A stretch of 64,000 nucleotides of DNA from an uncultured Candidatus Saccharibacteria bacterium. Its GTDB lineage: Bacteria; Patescibacteriota; Dojkabacteria; J137. The position numbers were made by a program, and so were the translations under genes. Shown here in pieces: positions 5,053-62,910 of the stretch. The stretch is taken from the NCBI GenBank assembly GCA_964437465.1, contig CAYTGI010000005.1, positions 5,203 to 69,202 of the forward strand. The letters are read 5' to 3'. The notes beneath the pieces were generated by a model. The model worked only from the letters and a program-made list of their open reading frames with translations, made no database searches and was not told where the DNA came from. Within the stretch, counting starts at the first letter, position 1, and every line of letters begins with the position of its first letter.

Positions 5053-5092
5053 AAAGTAATTATAACCAATAAGTACTAAGGTACCTAGGTAC

Positions 5093-5121
5093 TTGAGTAC
5101 AATAGTATTAATTTGTATAAT
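5093..5121 (+). promoter_or_regulatory. Sigma70-like promoter (TTGAGT-N17-TATAAT)
   Basis: -35 at 5093-5098 and -10 at 5116-5121 with a 17-nt spacer. Confidence 0.45.
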
Positions 5122-26558: not shown

Positions 26559-27947
26559 ATGAACATAGAGAATCTTAAGAAAATTGATATTTCGATAGTT
26601 ATTTGCGTTCTATTGCTTTGTGTAATAGGAGCTTTGAACGTTTTCTCAACAACATATTTCCCTGAGAAAGAAGCTTCAGGATTATTTTTTAACCAGCTGA
26701 TTTATTACGGAGTTGGTTTTATATTAATGATGGTAATCAGTTCAATAAACTTTAGCTTTTTGAACAGATTTTTTGTTCAGGTTATTGTTTTGATTGTGGC
26801 TGTAGGCTTATTGGTTGCTGTACTTTTTATAGGTGAGGAGGTTTTGGGTGCTACTAGGTGGATTAATATTGGAGGATTTACGATACAACCTTCGGAATTT
26901 GCAAAAATCGGAATGATTCTACTATCCTCATACATTTTAAGTTTTGAAAAACCTGTTAAAAAGTATAAAAATAGACTAATTAGCTTTTTCCTCAAGTACT
27001 TTGATTTGTTAAAAATCTTTGTATCTTTAGTTTTCCTAGGACTTTTTGTTGTTTTAATAATTAGTCAAAATTCTCTCGGTAATAGCTTGTTACTAATTGG
27101 TATCTGGGGAATTATCTTTATCTCTTATTTCCCATTTAACTTTAAATATATAGCTTTTGTTCTAAGCGCTGGATTGGGGATTTTCTTGTCGTTAAACATA
27201 CTATCTTTTTCAGGGGATTATTTACTCTCTAACAGTCTTAATATCTCATTATTAGGTTTAGGACTTTTTCTTTTAGTTATTTATACAATTGCAAAATTAA
27301 CCAAAGTTAAATTCTGGATGCTAATTTTAGTCTTTTTTTTAATGCTTCCAATAAGGTTTGGAGTTGAATACTCTTATGAAAATATTTTAAAAGACTATCA
27401 AAGAGTTCGTATAGAAACATTCTTAAATCCTGAATCAGACCAAGCAGCTAGCTGGAATAAAGATCAGGCAAGGATAGCCCTTGGATCAGGAAAGATTTTC
27501 GGTAAAGGTTTTTTAAAAGGAACTCATACAAACTATAAATTCTTGCCTTTTTCTTATAATGATTTTGCTTTTGCTTCACTAGGAGAACAATTCGGCTTCG
27601 TGGGACTTTTGACTGTTGTTTCATTATTTATTGTTTTACTGAATAGGATTGTAAATGTTGCTAGAGTGACTAAAAATCAATTCGGAAGGCTAATTGTTTT
27701 CGGCGTTTCAGGAATGATATTTCTTAATATGTTTCAGCATATGGGTATGAACGTTGGAATTTTACCAATTACAGGTGTACCTTTGCCTTTCGTAAGTTAC
27801 GGAGGTAGTGCTACTTTAGTTATGATGATGGGGATTGGGTTAGTTTTGTCTGTATCGGTTTATGGGGAGAGGTTTAGTAATGTAAGGAAACATGCACCTA
27901 AATATAAGGCGGTTAAGTCAAAAGTAAGACTAAATACTAAATCCTAA
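26559..27947 (+). CDS. ftsW: SEDS-family peptidoglycan glycosyltransferase FtsW/RodA
   Basis: GVPLPFVSYGGSA and polytopic membrane topology. Confidence 0.85.
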   Translation: MNIENLKKIDISIVICVLLLCVIGALNVFSTTYFPEKEASGLFFNQLIYYGVGFILMMVISSINFSFLNRFFVQVIVLIVAVGLLVAVLFIGEEVLGATRWINIGGFTIQPSEFAKIGMILLSSYILSFEKPVKKYKNRLISFFLKYFDLLKIFVSLVFLGLFVVLIISQNSLGNSLLLIGIWGIIFISYFPFNFKYIAFVLSAGLGIFLSLNILSFSGDYLLSNSLNISLLGLGLFLLVIYTIAKLTKVKFWMLILVFFLMLPIRFGVEYSYENILKDYQRVRIETFLNPESDQAASWNKDQARIALGSGKIFGKGFLKGTHTNYKFLPFSYNDFAFASLGEQFGFVGLLTVVSLFIVLLNRIVNVARVTKNQFGRLIVFGVSGMIFLNMFQHMGMNVGILPITGVPLPFVSYGGSATLVMMMGIGLVLSVSVYGERFSNVRKHAPKYKAVKSKVRLNTKS

Positions 27948-28029
27948 AGGTATAAATTCTAAACAAACTACAATGATCAGAAGATAAAAGAAATTGAGCT
28001 ATCTGTAGAGTTGTTTGTGATTGCCGATA

Positions 28030-28308
28030 TCAATAAACATAATCATGGCCTCCAATAGTAAGAAGAAGCACAATATCATCACCGTCAAAGTCCCAAATTA
28101 TTCTAATATCTCCATTAATCCTTGAACTATAGACTTTTCCATAATTGGGTAAGTTCACTTTGTGTGTCTTTAAAGAATTATCGAACGGGTTTCTACTTAA
28201 TTTTTCAACTTTTGAATTTATTAGACTAAAAAGATATCAATTATTCCTGATGAGCTTTAGATATTCTCTCTTGTATTTTGAAGTTGGTAGTATTTTAATC
28301 CTCCTCAT
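28030..28308 (-). pseudogene. RelE/ParE-family toxin with an in-frame TGA (codon 24; + coordinates 28237-28239)
   Basis: MRRIKILPTSKYKREYLKLIRNN*YLFSLINSKVEKLSRNPFDNSLKTHKVNLPNYGKVYSSRINGDIRIIWDFDGDDIVLLLTIGGHDYVY. The ATG overlaps the upstream antitoxin stop (ATGAGGAGGATTAA). Confidence 0.55.
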
Positions 28309-28609
28309 TGTCTACTTCCTCTAACATTTTTTCGTGAAATTCACGAATGTCTTGGGGAGTAGTTAGTGTCTCGTATTGTCCATTTTCGTAGTCTTCCCTA
28401 GCTTCTTTTACATCTTTTTCAAGCTTAGGGGTTCCGTACTCTACTGGAAGGTTTTTGGGGATTTTTATCCTGGAATATTCACGGTCTCTTTTAAGAGTAG
28501 ATAGAGCTAATTTAACGATCTCAGCTCGATCTAAACCTTCATAATGCTTTTCTAAAAAAGCGATTACTGGTTCTAGTTCTTTTGTTATTGTTACTCTAAT
28601 TGAACTCAT
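28295..28609 (-). CDS. RHH-type antitoxin (RelB/ParD-like)
   Basis: IRVTITKELEPVIAFLEKHYEGLDRAEIVKLALSTL looks like a ribbon-helix-helix, and the ORF overlaps the toxin start. Confidence 0.5.
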   Translation of the reverse strand: MSSIRVTITKELEPVIAFLEKHYEGLDRAEIVKLALSTLKRDREYSRIKIPKNLPVEYGTPKLEKDVKEAREDYENGQYETLTTPQDIREFHEKMLEEVDNEED

Positions 28610-28738
28610 GGTTAATTATGGCACTAAGTGGTGGTAAATGTCAAATATTGTTAAATTATGTATGTTTCGGTACAAATAGTGTTATTTTGCAAATATCTAA
28701 ATACTAAATCAGAAATTCTAAACAAATAAATAATAATT

Positions 28739-28782
28739 AAAAGACAAAAGACAAAAGACAAAAGACAAAGATAAAAGACAGA
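28739..28782. repeat. (AAAGAC)n hexamer tandem repeat, ~7 units
   Basis: aaagacaaaagacaaaagacaaaagacaaagataaaagacaga. Confidence 0.8.
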
Positions 28783-28857
28783 TAATTAAGGTAATTAAGT
28801 ATGAAATTCTCAGATATTAATAATTTGCACTGAAAGCATGGGGAATTATAATTTATT

Positions 28858-28897
28858 GGTACATTGGTACATTGGTACATTGGTACATTGGTACTTA
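28858..28897. repeat. (GGTACATT)x5 octamer tandem repeat
   Basis: Five near-perfect copies that abut the stop of ORF 28895-29155. Confidence 0.9.
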
Positions 28898-29155
28898 TTT
28901 ATAAATTTCCTCTAATTTCCCAATATTTAGAAAAATTATGTAGTTTTCTTTAATTCTAAAGAGAACAACAATTTCTTTGTAAATTACTACCTGGTAGAGG
29001 TCGAGTTTAAGGTAGGTAAACTCTGAAAGATCTATTTTTCCTTTTTTATCCGTAATTTCTTTTAGAAAATTATTGAATTGAGATTTAACTGATTTTTCCT
29101 CACTGACAGTTGTTTTGTAGTTTTTTACGAACAGGTAGCCGAAAACAATTTCCAC
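28895..29155 (-). CDS. RelE/ParE-like toxin candidate
   Basis: C-terminal YQVVIYKEIVVLFRIKENYIIFLNIGKLEEIYK resembles the RelE beta-sheet region; 3 nt downstream of the RHH antitoxin. Confidence 0.4.
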   Translation of the reverse strand: MEIVFGYLFVKNYKTTVSEEKSVKSQFNNFLKEITDKKGKIDLSEFTYLKLDLYQVVIYKEIVVLFRIKENYIIFLNIGKLEEIYK

Positions 29156-29158
29156 AGG

Positions 29159-29446
29159 TTATACAGATTTAAGGTACTCTATCGCGTCTTTACTGTTACT
29201 AAATAAAGGAATATCTCCATCTTTAACTTTTTTATAAGCTTCCTCGGAGTTTAAATAGTATTTCATAGCAGCTTCTTCACTAATCTCATTATTAAAACCA
29301 AAGCTTGTTTTCTTATTCTTGTAATTAGCGATAAAAACACGAACTAACTCTTGAAGGGAAGAGAATCCCTCCTCCTGAGCGAGTTTTTCAGCCTCATCTC
29401 TAAGGTTTTTCGGAAGTCGAACTTGAAGATTTACACCTACTGCCAT
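29159..29446 (-). CDS. RHH (CopG-like) antitoxin
   Basis: VNLQVRLPKNLRDEAEKLAQEEGFSSLQELVRVFI. Confidence 0.55.
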   Translation of the reverse strand: MAVGVNLQVRLPKNLRDEAEKLAQEEGFSSLQELVRVFIANYKNKKTSFGFNNEISEEAAMKYYLNSEEAYKKVKDGDIPLFSNSKDAIEYLKSV

Positions 29447-29632
29447 GAATGTAATTTAATATTTATATTACAATTGTAACAGTTTGGTAATAAAAGATAA
29501 AGTATTCATGTATATATGTATACACGTAGACATGTAAACACGTATGCGCGTATGAAAAGATTTTGACTTAAAAATACTAAAGAAACATTATTAGTTGGTG
29601 AGTTGGTACTTAGGTAGGAGAATATGAGTTCT

Positions 29633-29912
29633 TTAATTATTATACACCTGGTTATGAGTACCAACTGCAAGAAAAATGTAACTATCTTTTGTTTCTTTAA
29701 ATATAATTCGTAAGTCAGAATTAATGAAGCCTATGGACTCAAGTCCAAGCATGTTACCATGCAGCTTGTGGCGATAAATTGCTATATGAAAAGGATCATC
29801 TTCAAAAAATTCGTAATAAGTTAAGAAACTCATTTTTAAAAGTTTGATTAAAGCGGATTCTATTCTTATAGTTCTTTCTGAATGTTTTACTAAAGACGAT
29901 CTTTTTAGTCAT
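29633..29912 (-). pseudogene. YafQ/RelE-family toxin interrupted by a frameshift in an A6/T6 run (+ coordinates 29804-29809)
   Basis: N-terminus MTKKIVFSKTFRKNYKNRIRFNQTFKNEFLNLLRIF in one frame and C-terminus EDDPFHIAIYRHKLHGNMLGLESIGFINSDLRIIFKETKDSYIFLAVGTHNQVYNN in another. Reading T5 gives a full 91-aa toxin. The ATG overlaps the antitoxin stop. Confidence 0.5.
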
Positions 29913-30198
29913 AATCCTCACTAGTTAAGTCATTTAGAGCATCTGACATGCTGTTGAATGACGGGGACTTTTTCTTTGGGTTATTCTCTTCTACAAGGCT
30001 CTTTAGGGCCAACTTCAGAGTCTTTTTATTCAAAGAAAATTGTGAGGTCTGTCGAATTAATATATTTCCTTTAGCGTATTGTGTAGCAAGGAATGTGTTT
30101 AGCGAAGCTAATGTAGGAAACCCATCCTCAAGGGCTTTTTCCTTAAGGGTCTTCTCAAGCTCTTCTTCTAATCTATAGGTAATAACTTTTTTACTCAT
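29905..30198 (-). CDS. RHH-like antitoxin (probable start at internal Met, MSKKVITYRLEE...)
   Basis: GFPTLASLNTFLATQY resembles the neighbouring RHH antitoxin; the ORF extends to 30294 from an upstream Met. Confidence 0.45.
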   Translation of the reverse strand: MSKKVITYRLEEELEKTLKEKALEDGFPTLASLNTFLATQYAKGNILIRQTSQFSLNKKTLKLALKSLVEENNPKKKSPSFNSMSDALNDLTSEDYD

Positions 30199-30313
30199 AT
30201 CAACAAAATAATAGCATTTTATAGATATTTTGTCATTAAATGCTCGTTGAAGCCTAAGTATGAAAATACTTAGAAAATGGTTGATATGAAACACGAAAGA
30301 AGCATAATTCTTT

Positions 30314-30369
30314 GGTACGTTGGTACGTTGGTACGTTGGTACGTTGGTACGTTGGTACGTTGGTACATG
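30314..30369. repeat. (GGTACGTT)x6 + GGTACATG octamer tandem repeat
   Basis: Perfect tandem copies between TA modules. Confidence 0.9.
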
Positions 30370-30390
30370 AATACACCTCTACTAGTTAAA

Positions 30391-30789
30391 CTAAATTATT
30401 GCTTTGTCGTAATTCTTAAGAATCTTTTTGTCTGCAGTAGCTAATTTTGAATTACTTAATAACGCTTCTGAAGTAATAATTCGATCAAATGGGTCTCGTG
30501 TCCAAGAAATTGTTTTCACAATTTTGATTAGGTCGCTAAGCTTTGAATCCCTTACTTCAAGTCCAAGTTCAATTTCAAGTGTATGAATTATGTCTTCAGG
30601 TTTGACTGTTATCTTTTTTAAATCAAAAAGATATTGAAGCTCTAATTCTATGAAACTGCTTATGAAGAGTGGGTGTTTGTTTAATTAATTCTTGCACTTT
30701 AGAGAGAATCTGCTTACCTCACCAGCATACAAAAATATTACAGCGTTAGTATCTAGGTAAACTAGTTCAGATTTTCTTTTTCTTTCCAT
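30391..30789 (-). pseudogene. VapC-like PIN-domain toxin with an in-frame TAA (+ coordinates 30685-30687)
   Basis: MERKRKSELVYLDTNAVIFLYAGEVSRFSLKCKN*LNKHPLF...ISWTRDPFDRIITSEALLSNSKLATADKKIL, i.e. the PIN D-T-N and C-terminal acidic motifs. Confidence 0.55.
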
Positions 30790-31016
30790 TCTGAATCTAT
30801 ATCAAAAGTTTTAATCTTGGGGATGTCTTTAAAGCTCGTATTCTGACCTAAAATATTTCTTTTCTTAAGATTATTGAGCTTATCTGTAGGTTTATTCTTG
30901 GAAATTATAACAGTCTCGCCGTTTTTTTCTATTTCTACAGGTATTCCTGTTTCGATAACACTATCTATTACCTTATAAATCTTTTTTCTTAATTCTGTAG
31001 TAGTTAAAGTTTTCAT
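30762..31016 (-). CDS. Phd/YefM-like antitoxin
   Basis: TTELRKKIYKVIDSVIETGIPVEIEKNGETVIIS; the toxin start overlaps its 3' end. Confidence 0.5.
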   Translation of the reverse strand: MKTLTTTELRKKIYKVIDSVIETGIPVEIEKNGETVIISKNKPTDKLNNLKKRNILGQNTSFKDIPKIKTFDIDSEWKEKENLN

Positions 31017-31266
31017 ATTAATAGTTTAGCGTACTCTTTTATTGTTTACAAGCGTACGTTTTTGTGCACAGTAAAATTGCATGTAACTAGTGGCTAGTTT
31101 TGTTCCCAATTTCTGGAGAAAATCTAAAGAAAATTAGTGGAAGTTTTTAAGTTAAGTATCTTGTTGTTTGGTTTGGTGGCGAATTGCCTTTCTATATAAC
31201 AGTTTCCAAGTCTACCCCACCCTTGCCCTCCCCTGCTAGGGGAGGAGAAGGTACTGTTCCCAAAAC

Positions 31267-31847: not shown

Positions 31848-33098
31848 ATGATGAAATTTAGCACGATCCTAGTAGTACTGGCACTCCTGATGCTGTCCGC
31901 TGTGAGCGTGAACGCACAGGACGACGAACCTGAATCAACACCCGCGACGGTTACCTTGGATTATTTCAGCGGCGAAAGTATCGCGCAGTCCCCGGACGGC
32001 ACGTTTGAAATCGTGGTTCACGAAGAAGGCACAGCGTTGTGGTCCGATAGCACCAATGGCAGCCTGATCACTGAAGATCTGGCTTTCGACGCGATGGTGA
32101 ACGACGCTGGGCAATTCGCTTTGCTTATTGCACACGATGAAAGCGGTGAGTTGATCACAGGCGATCTTGCCGACGTGGCGTTTGGCACTCTCTCATACGA
32201 AGAAGGTTACTTCACTCGACTCGCAATGTCGTGGAATAGCGCAATTTGTGTTGAGCAGATCGACTTCAACGCCAATCGTATTCAGCTTGAGCATGAAGAC
32301 ACTGCGGAAATCGAATGTGCCTCGCGGTTTTCCGGCGATCTGTGGTCCGATGCTTTCGACATATATGTCGCACAGTACAACGAGTCTCCGGCGACCTACC
32401 AGAGCGTGGACGAAGAATTCGTTCTCACCGAAAGCGTGACCTTCAGGACTGAAGACATGTCATTGGTTGTCAACGGAATGACATTCCAAATCATGCTGGA
32501 CGGTAGCTTCCTGCAACACATCTACGGCGTCGAAAATGGCTCATTAACAATCTGGACAACAGAAGGGGTATATACAGGACAACTCCGCGACTATGTTGAT
32601 GTTACCCAGGCTGTGTTTGAACCGGCTATGGTTTTAAGCGTGGCTGAAAACGGGTGTGCGCTCCGAATCATGGAGGCGACTGGTACTGTTATTTTACTGA
32701 GCCAACAAGGCTATAACTTCGCCGGTTGCGACGAGATTGATGCGCAAGAAGGTTTTGAACTCGCAATGAACGTGCACCCCCCGATGATTGAAACTCCTCC
32801 AACGGTACATTACGACATGTCCAATCAGACGGAAGCCTGCTGGATTCGCATCGGCATCGGCGATTCTTTGGCGATAATCGAAGAAGATCAGAACTATGAT
32901 GAGATTTTCAGCGTCATGGACTTCGAGATTCGCTCTGATCAGAACAATTCATCGTTCAGGTACCCAAGCAACCTTCCAGAAGGGTGGAACGGACTATTCA
33001 ACCAGTACACTACGGCAGGTGGGCCAGAAGACCTCATCAGCTTGAATGGTGCTTTTGAAGACCCTGAGTCAGGCACGCCCTACTGCTCGGCTGATTAA
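31848..33098 (+). CDS. GC-rich secreted acidic protein (likely horizontally acquired)
   Basis: Signal peptide MMKFSTILVVLALLMLSAVSVNAQ. GC content and codon usage are markedly higher than in the rest of the window. Confidence 0.6.
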   Translation: MMKFSTILVVLALLMLSAVSVNAQDDEPESTPATVTLDYFSGESIAQSPDGTFEIVVHEEGTALWSDSTNGSLITEDLAFDAMVNDAGQFALLIAHDESGELITGDLADVAFGTLSYEEGYFTRLAMSWNSAICVEQIDFNANRIQLEHEDTAEIECASRFSGDLWSDAFDIYVAQYNESPATYQSVDEEFVLTESVTFRTEDMSLVVNGMTFQIMLDGSFLQHIYGVENGSLTIWTTEGVYTGQLRDYVDVTQAVFEPAMVLSVAENGCALRIMEATGTVILLSQQGYNFAGCDEIDAQEGFELAMNVHPPMIETPPTVHYDMSNQTEACWIRIGIGDSLAIIEEDQNYDEIFSVMDFEIRSDQNNSSFRYPSNLPEGWNGLFNQYTTAGGPEDLISLNGAFEDPESGTPYCSAD

Positions 33099-33157: not shown

Positions 33158-33339
33158 GAGAGAAGGGTCGGCTTATACAGCGATTCTTCTTTCCCATTCT
33201 TTAGGAATCCTATTTAGGATATCTAAAGAAAAATCTTTACCCCCTTTCTTTTGAAAAAAAGAAATTAGCTTCGCAGCATCTCAGTTTGTTACACCGTCCG
33301 AGTACTGAAGTACCAAAGTACCTATGTACTTAAGTACCT

Positions 33340-33702
33340 TTATACCTTCGTACTATAAAATGTCTTTAATTTCCTCAGCATATGAATAACCTCCTTCGTT
33401 TTCTTATCTATTTCTTCGTAATTTTCGCTTGTCAAGTATTGTAGATCTTTACTTAATTTTAGAAAATACCCTAGCTCATAAGCTGACGCTAGAGATATAC
33501 TTAAAAATCTTATAAATTCCTTCCTACTATCTCTACTACTCCCCTCTACAATATTTGAGGGAATAGAATAGCTTGCCCTTCGCATTTGACTAACTAATCC
33601 GTACTGTTCTGTTTTAGGAAATGATTTAGTAGAAGTGTAAATATTAATTGTAAGGTTATGTGAATATTCCCACACCTTTAGCTTAGTATAATCGTGCATC
33701 AT
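33340..33702 (-). CDS. Four-helix-bundle protein (23S rRNA IVS / Avd-like family)
   Basis: LKVWEYSHNLTINIY...FPKTEQYGLVSQMRRASYSIPSNIVEGSSR matches the family signature. Confidence 0.65.
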   Translation of the reverse strand: MMHDYTKLKVWEYSHNLTINIYTSTKSFPKTEQYGLVSQMRRASYSIPSNIVEGSSRDSRKEFIRFLSISLASAYELGYFLKLSKDLQYLTSENYEEIDKKTKEVIHMLRKLKTFYSTKV

Positions 33703-33768
33703 GTTTTCGTTAATAGTTAAACATGGGGAATACTCTAGTACCTGAGTACATTAGTACTTGTATACATT

Positions 33769-34104
33769 CTACATCACAAGCATCTCGTTAATGATGGATT
33801 TTATCTGACTAATTATTTTCTTATCGGCCTTGTCTATTTGGCTGAAAATACGCTTTTTATCTACTGTTCTTATTTGATCAAGCATAATCCATCCAGTTCT
33901 ATTTTCTACTTTCACCTTTATTCTTGTTGGGTAATCTTTTGACTTAGAAGTTATAGGAGCGATTATTATAGTTCTGAGATTAAAATTCATCTCATTTGGA
34001 GAAATTACAATACACGGTCTTGTCTTTTTTATCTCTGAGCCTATTGTAGGATCTAAATTTATCCAGTAAATAGTATATTGTTCTATTCGTTGTCCCATGC
34101 CCAC
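33769..34104 (-). CDS. mazF: MazF/PemK-family mRNA interferase toxin
   Basis: YWINLDPTIGSEIKKTRPCIVIS...APITS...LDQIRTVDKKR. Confidence 0.7.
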   Translation of the reverse strand: MGMGQRIEQYTIYWINLDPTIGSEIKKTRPCIVISPNEMNFNLRTIIIAPITSKSKDYPTRIKVKVENRTGWIMLDQIRTVDKKRIFSQIDKADKKIISQIKSIINEMLVM

Positions 34105-34340
34105 TCTTCATTATCCAAATCTATATTATCCTCCAAAACATCTTCATTAGATTCGTGCATTTTCTTAAATGCATTGTTCCATCCAGATCTAGGAGATTTT
34201 TTCAGTGGGGTTAGCGTAATAATACCATTTTCTTTTTTTATTTCTAGCTCTTCTTTTAAGTCTAATTTCATTTCCTCAAGCAAAACAGAAGGGATTCTAA
34301 TTCCCTTTGAATTTCCAATTTTTACTATTTTTGTATTCAT
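34083..34340 (-). CDS. mazE: MazE/AbrB-type antitoxin
   Basis: KIVKIGNSKGIRIPSVLLEEM SpoVT/AbrB fold with an acidic tail; overlaps mazF. Confidence 0.65.
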   Translation of the reverse strand: MNTKIVKIGNSKGIRIPSVLLEEMKLDLKEELEIKKENGIITLTPLKKSPRSGWNNAFKKMHESNEDVLEDNIDLDNEEWAWDNE

Positions 34341-34643
34341 AAGATATTTTAACGTAATTACAATGTGAGTACAAGTAGGTATTTCTGAGTCTGGCGATTT
34401 ACGAGCGAAGCGAAGTAATCTCGCTAGGTTTATCGATAAGCTTAGTGAGGCTGCTTCGTCACTAGGCTCCTCGCAGACCGCCTTGAAGTCATCACACTGA
34501 GCCTGCCTGCAGGTAGGCAGGGCTCTCTAAGGGTGGTATAAAATTATAGGCACGATCATGGTTCGAGAACCTCACCATGACATAATGAGAATTGCAAAAA
34601 AAGACCTATCGGGATATGATTTACTATATTAATAAACATTTTT

Positions 34644-35396
34644 ATGAAATCATTTGGCGGTAAAATTCTAAAGTTTATTTTGATACTTCTATATCCAGTT
34701 ATAGTTGTTCTTTTAATCGCAGTTTCAGTTGTCCTATTCTTAAGAATGCGAGATGTAGATAACGCTTTAGATAAATATAACGAGATTTATTCAACTTACG
34801 ATATTCAAGGAACTCCTAAACAGAACATTTCTAACGCAATGGAAGATGCAAGAGAGATTGTAGGAGAGCTATTTATGGGGCTAGAAGAGAGCTCAAGAGA
34901 GATTGAAAGTTTAAGAAATCAGGTAGAAAGTGAGCAAAAGGATGGATTCGGAGAGATTAGAGGAAGAATTTTAGCTTTTGTTTCTCAAGGAGAGAGTTTA
35001 AATAGATACCAAAGAGTTTGCGCTGAAGTTACTGAAAATGCAAATAAGCAGTACTGTGTTTCTGTTTCAGCAATTGAAGCGAGTTACAACCTAGTTGTTC
35101 CTGAAGGTGAATATTACGTATTCGCCCAGCTTCAAGATGACCCTACAAGTACTGAAAAAGCATACTATACTGAATTTGTAAGATGCTCAAAAGAAGGAAG
35201 TGGGAGATGTGAAGAAAGTCTTTCAGATACAAAGATTTTAGTTACTGTTGATTCGGGAGGTATAGTTCAAGGGATTGATCCAATGGACTGGCCAACGATT
35301 GATGATCTAACAATTCCTACTGATAATGTTGAGGAGCCTGAGGATAGTGTTGAGGAAGAGCAAGCTGAAGAGTCAGCTCCTGAAGAAGGTCAATAA
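34644..35396 (+). CDS. Membrane-anchored protein with an acidic C-terminus (hypothetical)
   Basis: N-terminal TM helix and a Glu-rich tail. Confidence 0.35.
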   Translation: MKSFGGKILKFILILLYPVIVVLLIAVSVVLFLRMRDVDNALDKYNEIYSTYDIQGTPKQNISNAMEDAREIVGELFMGLEESSREIESLRNQVESEQKDGFGEIRGRILAFVSQGESLNRYQRVCAEVTENANKQYCVSVSAIEASYNLVVPEGEYYVFAQLQDDPTSTEKAYYTEFVRCSKEGSGRCEESLSDTKILVTVDSGGIVQGIDPMDWPTIDDLTIPTDNVEEPEDSVEEEQAEESAPEEGQ

Positions 35397-35470
35397 TACC
35401 TTACTACTTAGCTACCTCAGTACATTGGTACTCTATAGTGACAAACTAATAAAAAGTTGTATAATAAATC

Positions 35471-62664: not shown

Positions 62665-62910
62665 GTTCAAAGTATAAAAAGTACTTATGTACTTAAGTAC
62701 CTAGGTACTTGTGTACTATATATTCTTTGAGGACTACTCAATGGCAGTGGTACCACCTCTATTTCCCGATGAAGAATCGGAACACTTATTACAGCTATTT
62801 CGGGCATACCCGGAGGATTTTACTACTTTCGGTTCTTTCCTCAGCACACCTGTGACAAGCAAGTGTATTGCTTAACAGATTATATCTTAGTTTTTTACTA
62901 CGTGCCAGAA

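Follow-up and report, generated by a model that had tools for sequence, protein, structure and literature searches.

The 64,000-nt stretch of DNA analysed here (the window, whose positions serve as coordinates throughout) carries four antitoxin-toxin pairs, A1-T1 to A4-T4, all on the minus strand and together spanning 28030-31016, next to the 3' end of an ftsW/rodA-family gene. They probably represent a type II toxin-antitoxin (TA) cluster at an insertion hotspot, in which three toxins (T1, T3 and T4) were recently lost by single, independent mutations and the antitoxins stayed behind intact as leftovers. T1 is interrupted by an in-frame TGA, T3 by a 1-nt frameshift and T4 by an in-frame TAA. 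An initial annotation of this DNA had located the three lesions at 28237-28239, 29804-29809 and 30685-30687, and all of them were read from the sequence at these positions. It had also described the antitoxins as intact and full-length, in agreement with the uninterrupted reading frames of A1, A2, A3 and A4. The lesion-bearing toxin genes were translated after repair, with the stop replaced by X or one T removed. The genes of the cluster are the following:

28030-28308, minus strand: T1, YafQ/RelE-like toxin pseudogene, in-frame TGA at codon 24 of 92
28295-28609, minus strand: A1, intact 104-aa open reading frame (ORF), antitoxin of T1
28895-29155, minus strand: T2, rare divergent RelE/YafQ-fold protein, open 86-codon ORF with a GTG start
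29159-29446, minus strand: A2, intact 95-aa antitoxin resembling ribbon-helix-helix (RHH) proteins
29633-29912, minus strand: T3, YafQ-like toxin pseudogene, 1-nt insertion in a T run (T5 to T6)
29905-30198, minus strand: A3, intact 97-aa ORF, antitoxin of T3; the exact 97-aa product is on record
30391-30789, minus strand: T4, VapC (PIN) toxin pseudogene, in-frame TAA at codon 35 of 132
30762-31016, minus strand: A4, intact 84-aa Phd/YefM-type antitoxin

The toxin start overlaps the end of the antitoxin gene by 14 nt in pair 1, 8 nt in pair 3 and 28 nt in pair 4. Such an overlap had been stated for every pair, which does not hold for pair 2: the TAA stop of A2 is followed by a 3-nt gap and then by the GTG start of T2.

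Host and relatives

The host is placed in Candidatus Dojkabacteria (WS6), within the candidate phyla radiation (CPR)/Patescibacteria, and the nearest public relatives of its ftsW are found in two Dojkabacteria metagenome-assembled genomes (MAGs). The contigs of these two MAGs (L002 and L003) encode an FtsW 53-55% identical at the amino acid level to that of the window. Two Logan contigs were also compared: L001, assembled separately from run SRR7048222, and L006, a 1,417-bp contig from a different sample that holds the counterparts of pairs 1 and 2 (A1', T1', A2' and T2'). The island proteins lie on one NCBI MAG contig of 77,459 bp, and each is a singleton among ~15 billion protein sequences. 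No close relative genome was found, the scan of a genome collection reaching only relatives at ~54% identity, and a metagenome scan for close relatives of the locus returned nothing useful.

Toxin pseudogenes T1, T3 and T4

A phmmer search with T1 retrieved 23 YafQ-like proteins of 90-101 aa (E down to 2e-29), several with PF15738 (YafQ_toxin), and all 92 residues of T1 could be aligned. All ten invariant columns of the family are kept, as are the seven near-invariant ones. The direct Pfam scores remain below the gathering thresholds (YoeB 22.1 bits, cut-off 27; YafQ 21.6 bits, cut-off 30). The best homologue is the intact 94-aa T1' of L006, which is about 63-64% identical over 100% of the query. 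The premature stop lies in the minus-strand context AGG AAT AAT TGA TAT. At this column, the homologues have K, R, P, D, Q or E, and T1' has the codon AAA (Lys).

In T1' itself (P0001, L006 463-747), the near-invariant His of the LKTHKV motif, found in 15 of 16 family members, is replaced by Arg. This only close intact relative of T1 may itself be attenuated.

The YafQ-like nature proposed for T3 was confirmed, as was its frameshift. After repair, T3 reaches 34.6 bits with Pfam YafQ_toxin (cut-off 30), over profile positions 2-86 of 88, and aligns with homologues of 86-90 aa, keeping 18 of 18 invariant columns. On the minus strand, the lesion reads CGA ATT TTT TGA (A6 on the plus strand), with the frame-1 stop TGA at 29802-29804. 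The frame switches directly after the invariant F36, leaving two ORFs, one N-terminal (36 aa) and one C-terminal (66 aa). The latter (P0024; 29633-29833, minus strand) has been deposited as a protein in the public record, from which the T1 and T4 fragments and T2 are absent.

T4 and A4 were correctly described as a VapC PIN toxin with a TAA and a Phd-like antitoxin, as both pass the Pfam thresholds. Repaired T4 matches PIN with 31.2 bits (cut-off 23.6) over positions 1-117 of 120, and A4 matches PhdYeFM_antitox with 31.9 bits (cut-off 29.8). The intact, syntenic VapC of L003 aligns with T4 without gaps over 132 of 132 aa, at 46% identity. T4 keeps the acidic residues of the DTN, ELE, DPFD and AD motifs, as in the L003 protein. 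Its stop, in the minus-strand context AAG AAT TAA TTA, stands opposite a TTA (Leu) codon, one transversion away. The comparison with the loci of relatives, as proposed in the initial annotation, has thus yielded a sense codon at both nonsense sites, Lys in T1' and Leu in the L003 VapC, each in an intact gene.

Authenticity and age of the lesions

All three lesions are in the toxin genes, whose coding sequence amounts to ~0.95 kb; the other ORFs, ~55 kb in total, showed none. The window has a GC content of ~33% and is tightly filled with ORFs of genetic code 11, rpoB/rpoC-size ones included. Outside the variable region around the cluster, unbroken ORFs make up ~90% of it, among them ORFs of 1139, 1319 and 1567 aa. 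The three largest ORF-free gaps in the 64 kb are the three broken toxins, apart from one 831-bp intergenic stretch. This coverage by long code-11 ORFs rules out an alternative code in which UGA is a sense codon (codes 4 or 25).

The lesions could be consensus or assembly errors of the MAG, or minority variants, with the toxins intact in most cells. The sequence is indeed that of a MAG contig, the T3 lesion lies in a homopolymer, and the second assembly covers T1 only. This explanation is nevertheless highly improbable, as it would need three errors in the short toxin sequence and none elsewhere. Two of the three lesions are substitutions, and L001 is 100% identical to window positions 27439-28768 (1330 bp), including the TGA of T1. 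A 6-nt homopolymer is also short for indel errors of the Illumina type. Random sequencing error as a general explanation was ruled out by the confinement of the lesions to toxins and the recurrence of the TGA in L001.

Another explanation would leave the toxins attenuated by recoding, as a form of dosage control, with UGA read-through in T1 and a +1 slip at UUU UGA A in T3. T3 reads AUU UUU UGA A, where the tRNA-Phe can re-pair perfectly in the +1 frame beside the stop, and the CUU UGA site of prfB is a precedent for such a shifty stop. TGA is the rarest stop codon here, ending 3 of 41 long ORFs, and beyond the lesions the catalytic and invariant residues are all preserved. Such preservation would follow equally from recent lesions, and no Shine-Dalgarno-like stimulator precedes the T3 site. 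The homologues of T1 and T3 are all single uninterrupted ORFs, and so none of them shares the interruption. In T4 the stop is TAA-T, the commonest terminator context of the window (16 of 41). Recoding holds some attraction for T3 alone, and taken together it is extremely improbable. A programmed +1 frameshift of the prfB type in T3 was rejected, since its UUU UGA has no upstream Shine-Dalgarno-like element and the homologues are unshifted.

In every pair compared with the relatives, pN is much lower than pS (0.25 versus 0.89 for T1, for instance, and 0.36 versus 0.77 for T4), pS being saturated. Together with the retained invariant residues, this indicates that the toxins were under constraint for nearly all of their history and that the lesions are recent. 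Judged from their sequences, T1, T3 and T4 are young pseudogenes. Decay after loss of selection, one of two options in the initial annotation, is accordingly the better supported one, given the low pN, the conserved residues and the documented toxin-first order of TA decay discussed below.

Several points weigh against recent loss by independent hits with passively retained antitoxins. The second assembly confirms the lesion of T1 only; the T3 frameshift and the T4 TAA stand on one MAG consensus. The location of all three lesions in toxins is not significant taken alone (p ~0.14), the toxin and antitoxin coding lengths being about equal. Three young pseudogenes within 3 kb hint at a common cause, which pure drift leaves unexplained; this might be a selective regime that changed recently, or selection acting against the toxins. 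Finally, no close relative genome was found with which the lesions could be dated or the constraint on the antitoxins tested.

Antitoxins A1 to A4

The RHH class originally given to A1, A2 and A3 is supported to different degrees, at best weakly.

A1 has no match in Pfam, NCBIfam or the PDB, and an RHH signature was not detected, so that this part of the description of pair 1 finds no support in these searches. The RelE-like toxin with its TGA stands. A1 is 48% identical over 33 aa to the antitoxin adjoining the T1 homologue P0002. Its single-sequence AlphaFold2 (AF2) model is too poor to use (pLDDT 56), with only an N-terminal helix-helix element resolved. A promoter-like site, TTGACA-18-CATAAT (28644-28615), is located 5 nt ahead of the ATG.

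A2 scores 18.3 bits against Pfam RHH_1, under the cut-off of 20.5, which is weak support for the RHH class. Upstream of it lies the following element:

29469-29481: palindrome TGTTACAATTGTA, identical at 13 of 13 positions in L006

The upstream DNA flanking the palindrome has diverged. Because it is conserved while its flanks are not, it is read as an antitoxin operator, probably that of A2.

For A3, the N-terminus is RHH-like, although weakly: residues 6-44 align with the RHH region of A2 (hhalign 63%, E = 7e-5). A promoter-like site is present at 30236-30208. A3 is unrelated to the antitoxin partnered with the closest T3 homologue. On one of three otherwise syntenic contigs (L008 2228-2543), no antitoxin gene is called upstream of the T3 homologue P0026. 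The -10-like hexamers of A1 (28615-28620) and A3 (30208-30213), both on the minus strand, end 5 and 9 nt ahead of the respective ATG, which suggests that the two antitoxin mRNAs are leaderless or nearly so.

A4 is 54% identical, without gaps, to the 84-aa orthologue adjoining the intact VapC of L003.

The toxins may be pseudogenes and A1, A3 and A4 still be kept by selection, either as anti-addiction immunity or as transcriptional regulators. That chromosomal antitoxins may act in anti-addiction is a well-established concept (PMC7354431). Full length in four of four antitoxins, the promoter-like sites and the conserved putative operator of A2 would fit with it. The cassettes also look mobile, given the duplicated ftsW ends, their exchanged positions in L006 and the unoccupied site of L002 (see below), which makes re-invasion plausible. 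However, relatives of the T1 and T3 toxin families were not found in 2.9 million IMG/VR viral contigs, and recent toxin lesions alone predict intact antitoxins equally well. We consider selective retention unlikely.

Searches for known RNA families in and around the island found none, PADLOC defence models gave no meaningful match, and the small ORFs examined in other parts of the window included no further TA genes.

T2, a divergent partner of A2

T2 has no Pfam match and no homologue at the k-mer level. An exhaustive phmmer search revealed one true homologue, P0041 (T2'), of 84 aa and 52% identical over the full length, which is located in L006 directly after the A2 homologue. The existence of a full-length homologue adjoining an A2 homologue rules out that T2 is noise. 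The profile built from T2 and P0041 aligns with that of the T3 family over 83 columns (hhalign 96.2%, E = 2.7e-9), and by this profile-profile comparison only, T2 is assigned to the RelE superfamily. The AF2 single-sequence model of T2 was uninformative (pLDDT 53).

The catalytic His/Arg/His positions are missing from T2, where DLRII pairs with EIVVL and GTHNQ with GKLEE. At the same positions, P0041 has DVVVL and GTIEE. The Arg of DLRII and the His of GTHNQ are thus replaced in both proteins, which rules out T2 as an ordinary active RNase of the RelE/YafQ type. Of the "intact RelE-like" toxin first proposed, the open reading frame and the superfamily remain, and the catalytic residues do not.

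Probable toxin-first decay

In the explanation that we favour, each operon would formerly have been functional, with its own promoter, the antitoxin gene first and the toxin gene, encoding a RNase of the RelE/YafQ or PIN type, second. The antitoxin would neutralise the toxin and probably repress its own promoter. T1 would have been knocked out by the change of a sense codon to TGA, T3 by the insertion of one T in the homopolymer and T4 by a change of TTA to TAA. The decay of TA pairs would proceed toxin-first, as losing the antitoxin while the toxin is active would mean cell death. Once the toxin is dead, its antitoxin would drift neutrally, for too short a time here to have been hit. The antitoxins would thus be intact because only toxin-first decay is survivable and because the toxin lesions are recent. 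As for the remaining pairs, a MazEF pair further along the region would simply have stayed intact, and T2 would be a divergent RelE-fold protein without the catalytic residues of the RNases.

This order of events has been described for chromosomal TA loci. In Photorhabdus, TA pairs are located in small high-turnover spots, and their erosion is documented by 185 toxin-only copies, 186 losses of both genes and 8 antitoxin-only copies (Belot et al. 2026, PMC13617665). Among chromosomal TA loci, toxin-only pseudogenisation is the most frequent form of erosion known (PMC13617665). TA decay through nonsense mutations is widely reported (PMC7167474), and the decay of ccdO157 in E. coli is cited in the same work from Mine et al. 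2009. Degraded systems and orphan antitoxins have been reviewed for Klebsiella, Caulobacter (parE) and Shigella (yacB) (PMC7354431). The present toxin-only pseudogenisation is an ordinary, already documented first step of TA decay and involves no new mechanism.

The cluster resembles these eroding loci (Photorhabdus, ccdO157, Klebsiella and others) in its position in a small high-turnover spot, in the nonsense and frameshift mutations of the toxins and in the intact antitoxins. Complete deletion in a relative (the empty L002 site) and repeated use of the same location for acquisition are also shared. It differs in its host, a member of the CPR/Patescibacteria with a very small genome instead of a proteobacterium. 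Furthermore, three adjacent toxins are all at the one-lesion stage here, and no recombinase or transposase gene is found in or beside the cluster.

The ftsW 3' end as an insertion hotspot

The initial annotation recognized the four pairs and missed the wider region around them, which includes a MazEF pair (33769-34340), 3 kb past the cluster, and the insertion hotspot at ftsW. The variable region between ftsW and a gene for a 250-aa protein measures 6.7 kb. Its anchors, and the repeats that bracket pair 1, are:

26559-27947, plus strand: ftsW/rodA-family gene, 462-aa ORF; left anchor, its 3' end being the insertion site
27930-27967: left copy of a direct repeat, comprising the last five ftsW codons, the stop and ~20 nt further
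28697-28726: right copy of this repeat, bracketing the A1-T1 cassette together with the left copy
34644-35396, plus strand: conserved membrane-anchored 250-aa protein; right anchor, with orthologues at L002 6634-7329 and L003 4766-5458

Two exact 14-mers, CTAAATACTAAATC (the last ftsW codons) and AAATTCTAAACAAA, are present at 27930/27954 and again at 28697/28713, and nowhere else. Local alignment of the two repeats gives a score of 41, the best of 300 shuffles reaching 31. No significant copy of the ftsW 3' end was found in the other spacers at the remaining cassette borders (p = 0.06-0.66), so that serial accretion is supported for A1-T1 only.

In the two relatives, the interval from ftsW to the 250-aa gene holds three unrelated genes, and in L003 alone an intact Phd-VapC pair (84 and 132 aa) that adjoins ftsW on its downstream side in convergent orientation. 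An 853-bp segment with this pair is the one break in the collinearity of L003 and L002, which share ~84% nucleotide identity. The segment is bracketed by imperfect ~32-bp copies of the ftsW 3' end, of which L002 has one, as expected from an empty site. In L006, A1', T1', A2' and T2' are respectively 73%, 64%, 63% and 51% identical to their counterparts in the window, and the order of cassettes 1 and 2 is opposite to that in the window. On this comparative evidence, the ftsW 3' end behaves as an insertion/deletion hotspot for small TA cassettes.

Genes for a recombinase or transposase were not found in the variable region, and neither were ORFs beyond those listed in this text. Long imperfect inverted repeats of the attC type were absent, as was an integron integrase from the window. 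An integron gene-cassette array was ruled out, as there is no integrase or attC and the spacers hold short tandem arrays.

Two kinds of known elements may be likened to this arrangement. CIME-type elements are att-flanked, integrase-less arrays that form by site-specific accretion, and chromosomal integrons hold TA cassettes. Here too, modules are stacked at the 3' end of a conserved gene, a duplicated end brackets a cassette and a relative has the empty site. Unlike in those systems, there is no integrase near the island, no attC-like repeat and no integron integrase, and significant flanking repeats exist for one cassette in the window (A1-T1) and one in L003. A bolder proposal sees the ftsW 3' end as an att site for serial integrase-less TA cassettes of ~0.7-0.9 kb, each bringing a replacement ftsW 3' end. 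Each toxin would have been killed by the host soon after its arrival, and the antitoxins, perhaps with their operators, kept as immunity to renewed invasion by such cassettes still in circulation. The row of pairs would then be a selected archive instead of debris, and the short perfect 7-8-bp tandem arrays separating the cassettes would be part of insertion or slippage. We regard this as very unlikely.

A ~57-bp hairpin-containing element (GATCCCGATTTATCGGGAT...) was observed at L003 1452-1508 and L002 7331-7388, the copies being 84% identical. It stands beside the Phd-VapC cassette in L003 and in an unrelated intergenic place in L002, and may be a small dispersed repeat of these genomes.

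Other genes and tandem arrays

The remaining features of the region are:

28739-28894: spacer between operons 2 and 1, with two short tandem arrays identified by Tandem Repeats Finder (TRF)
30312-30374: perfect (TTGGTACG)x6.9 array between the T4 stop and the A3 promoter, identified by TRF and by the search for GTAC arrays
31848-33098, plus strand: orphan 416-aa gene, ~50% GC, with a signal-peptide-like N-terminus
33340-33702, minus strand: four-helix-bundle protein of the 23S rRNA-intervening-sequence family (Pfam PF05635, 131.9 bits)
33769-34340, minus strand: intact MazE/MazF pair, the fifth TA pair of the variable region (MazE 34083-34340, MazF 33769-34104)

MazF matches Pfam PemK_toxin over its full length with 105.3 bits and MazE matches MazE_antitoxin with 28.2 bits, both above threshold; the two ORFs overlap by 22 nt. 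The 416-aa orphan has no Pfam or PADLOC match, is a singleton in the protein collection and looks like a recent horizontal acquisition within the variable region. Hairpin- and GC-rich intergenic stretches are located at 31190-31260 and 34380-34540 (e.g. CCCTCCCCTGCTAGGGGAGG), with a ~55%-GC segment upstream of MazE. Neither stretch has an Rfam match or a second copy within the window.

The arrays of the spacer between operons 2 and 1 are (AAAAGAC)x6 at 28739-28780 and a perfect (ATTGGTAC)x5 at 28855-28894. The latter belongs to a group of intergenic tandem arrays with a GTAC core (GTACYNNN) and an exact 8-bp period. They are found at 5073-5108, 28855-28894, 29595-29620 (degenerate), 30312-30374, 33302-33353, 33730-33765, 35412-35431 and 62681-62716. 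For the pattern GTAC-N4-GTAC-N4-GTAC, with at most one mismatch, 0.02 matches would be expected in the window and 24 are present; the spacing of successive GTAC pairs is exactly 8 bp in 24 cases. GTAC as such is not avoided (184 observed, 167 expected). Two arrays of the TA island are perfect (x5 and x6.9), and the remaining ones have variable spacers. The arrays closely follow a stop codon and/or precede the next start by 10-110 bp, and they might be promoter elements, insulators or slippage-prone repeats.

None of the relatives has GTAC arrays. They carry 7-bp tandem arrays at equivalent intergenic places, such as AAGTTAA x4 upstream of phd in L003 (2292-2321) and AAACTAG x4 in L002 (6542-6568). 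L006 ends inside arrays of GGCTACA and TTCTAGC (1-14 and 1389-1417).

Comparison with known TA families

DinJ-YafQ and RelBE-type modules are ribosome-dependent mRNA interferases with RHH antitoxins. T1 and T3 resemble the E. coli DinJ-YafQ and RelBE systems in that their family profiles are matched from end to end and His, Arg and Asp are retained at the conserved positions. A small antitoxin gene is located upstream, with a stop/start overlap and a promoter directly ahead of the antitoxin. Unlike in E. coli, the ORFs of T1 and T3 are broken, T1 remains under the Pfam gathering threshold and A1 is without a detectable RHH. Pair 4 is similar to systems of a PIN toxin with a Phd/YefM antitoxin, as A4 and repaired T4 pass the thresholds and their 28-nt overlap is identical to that of the intact L003 pair. 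It differs from them in T4 ending at codon 35 with a TAA.

Implications

The variable region shows TA erosion in the CPR/Patescibacteria at its earliest stage, with three independent single-hit knock-outs of toxins and untouched antitoxins. In relatives, the locus has other contents or none. For annotation, this means that "orphan antitoxins" and small ORFs at this locus, like the deposited 66-aa product of T3, are toxin remnants. Further work may pay off only for the insertion site at the 3' end of ftsW and for the tandem arrays with GTAC. What has been described in proteobacteria, namely toxin-first decay and TA pairs gathered in high-turnover spots, extends to ultra-small, probably symbiotic bacteria.

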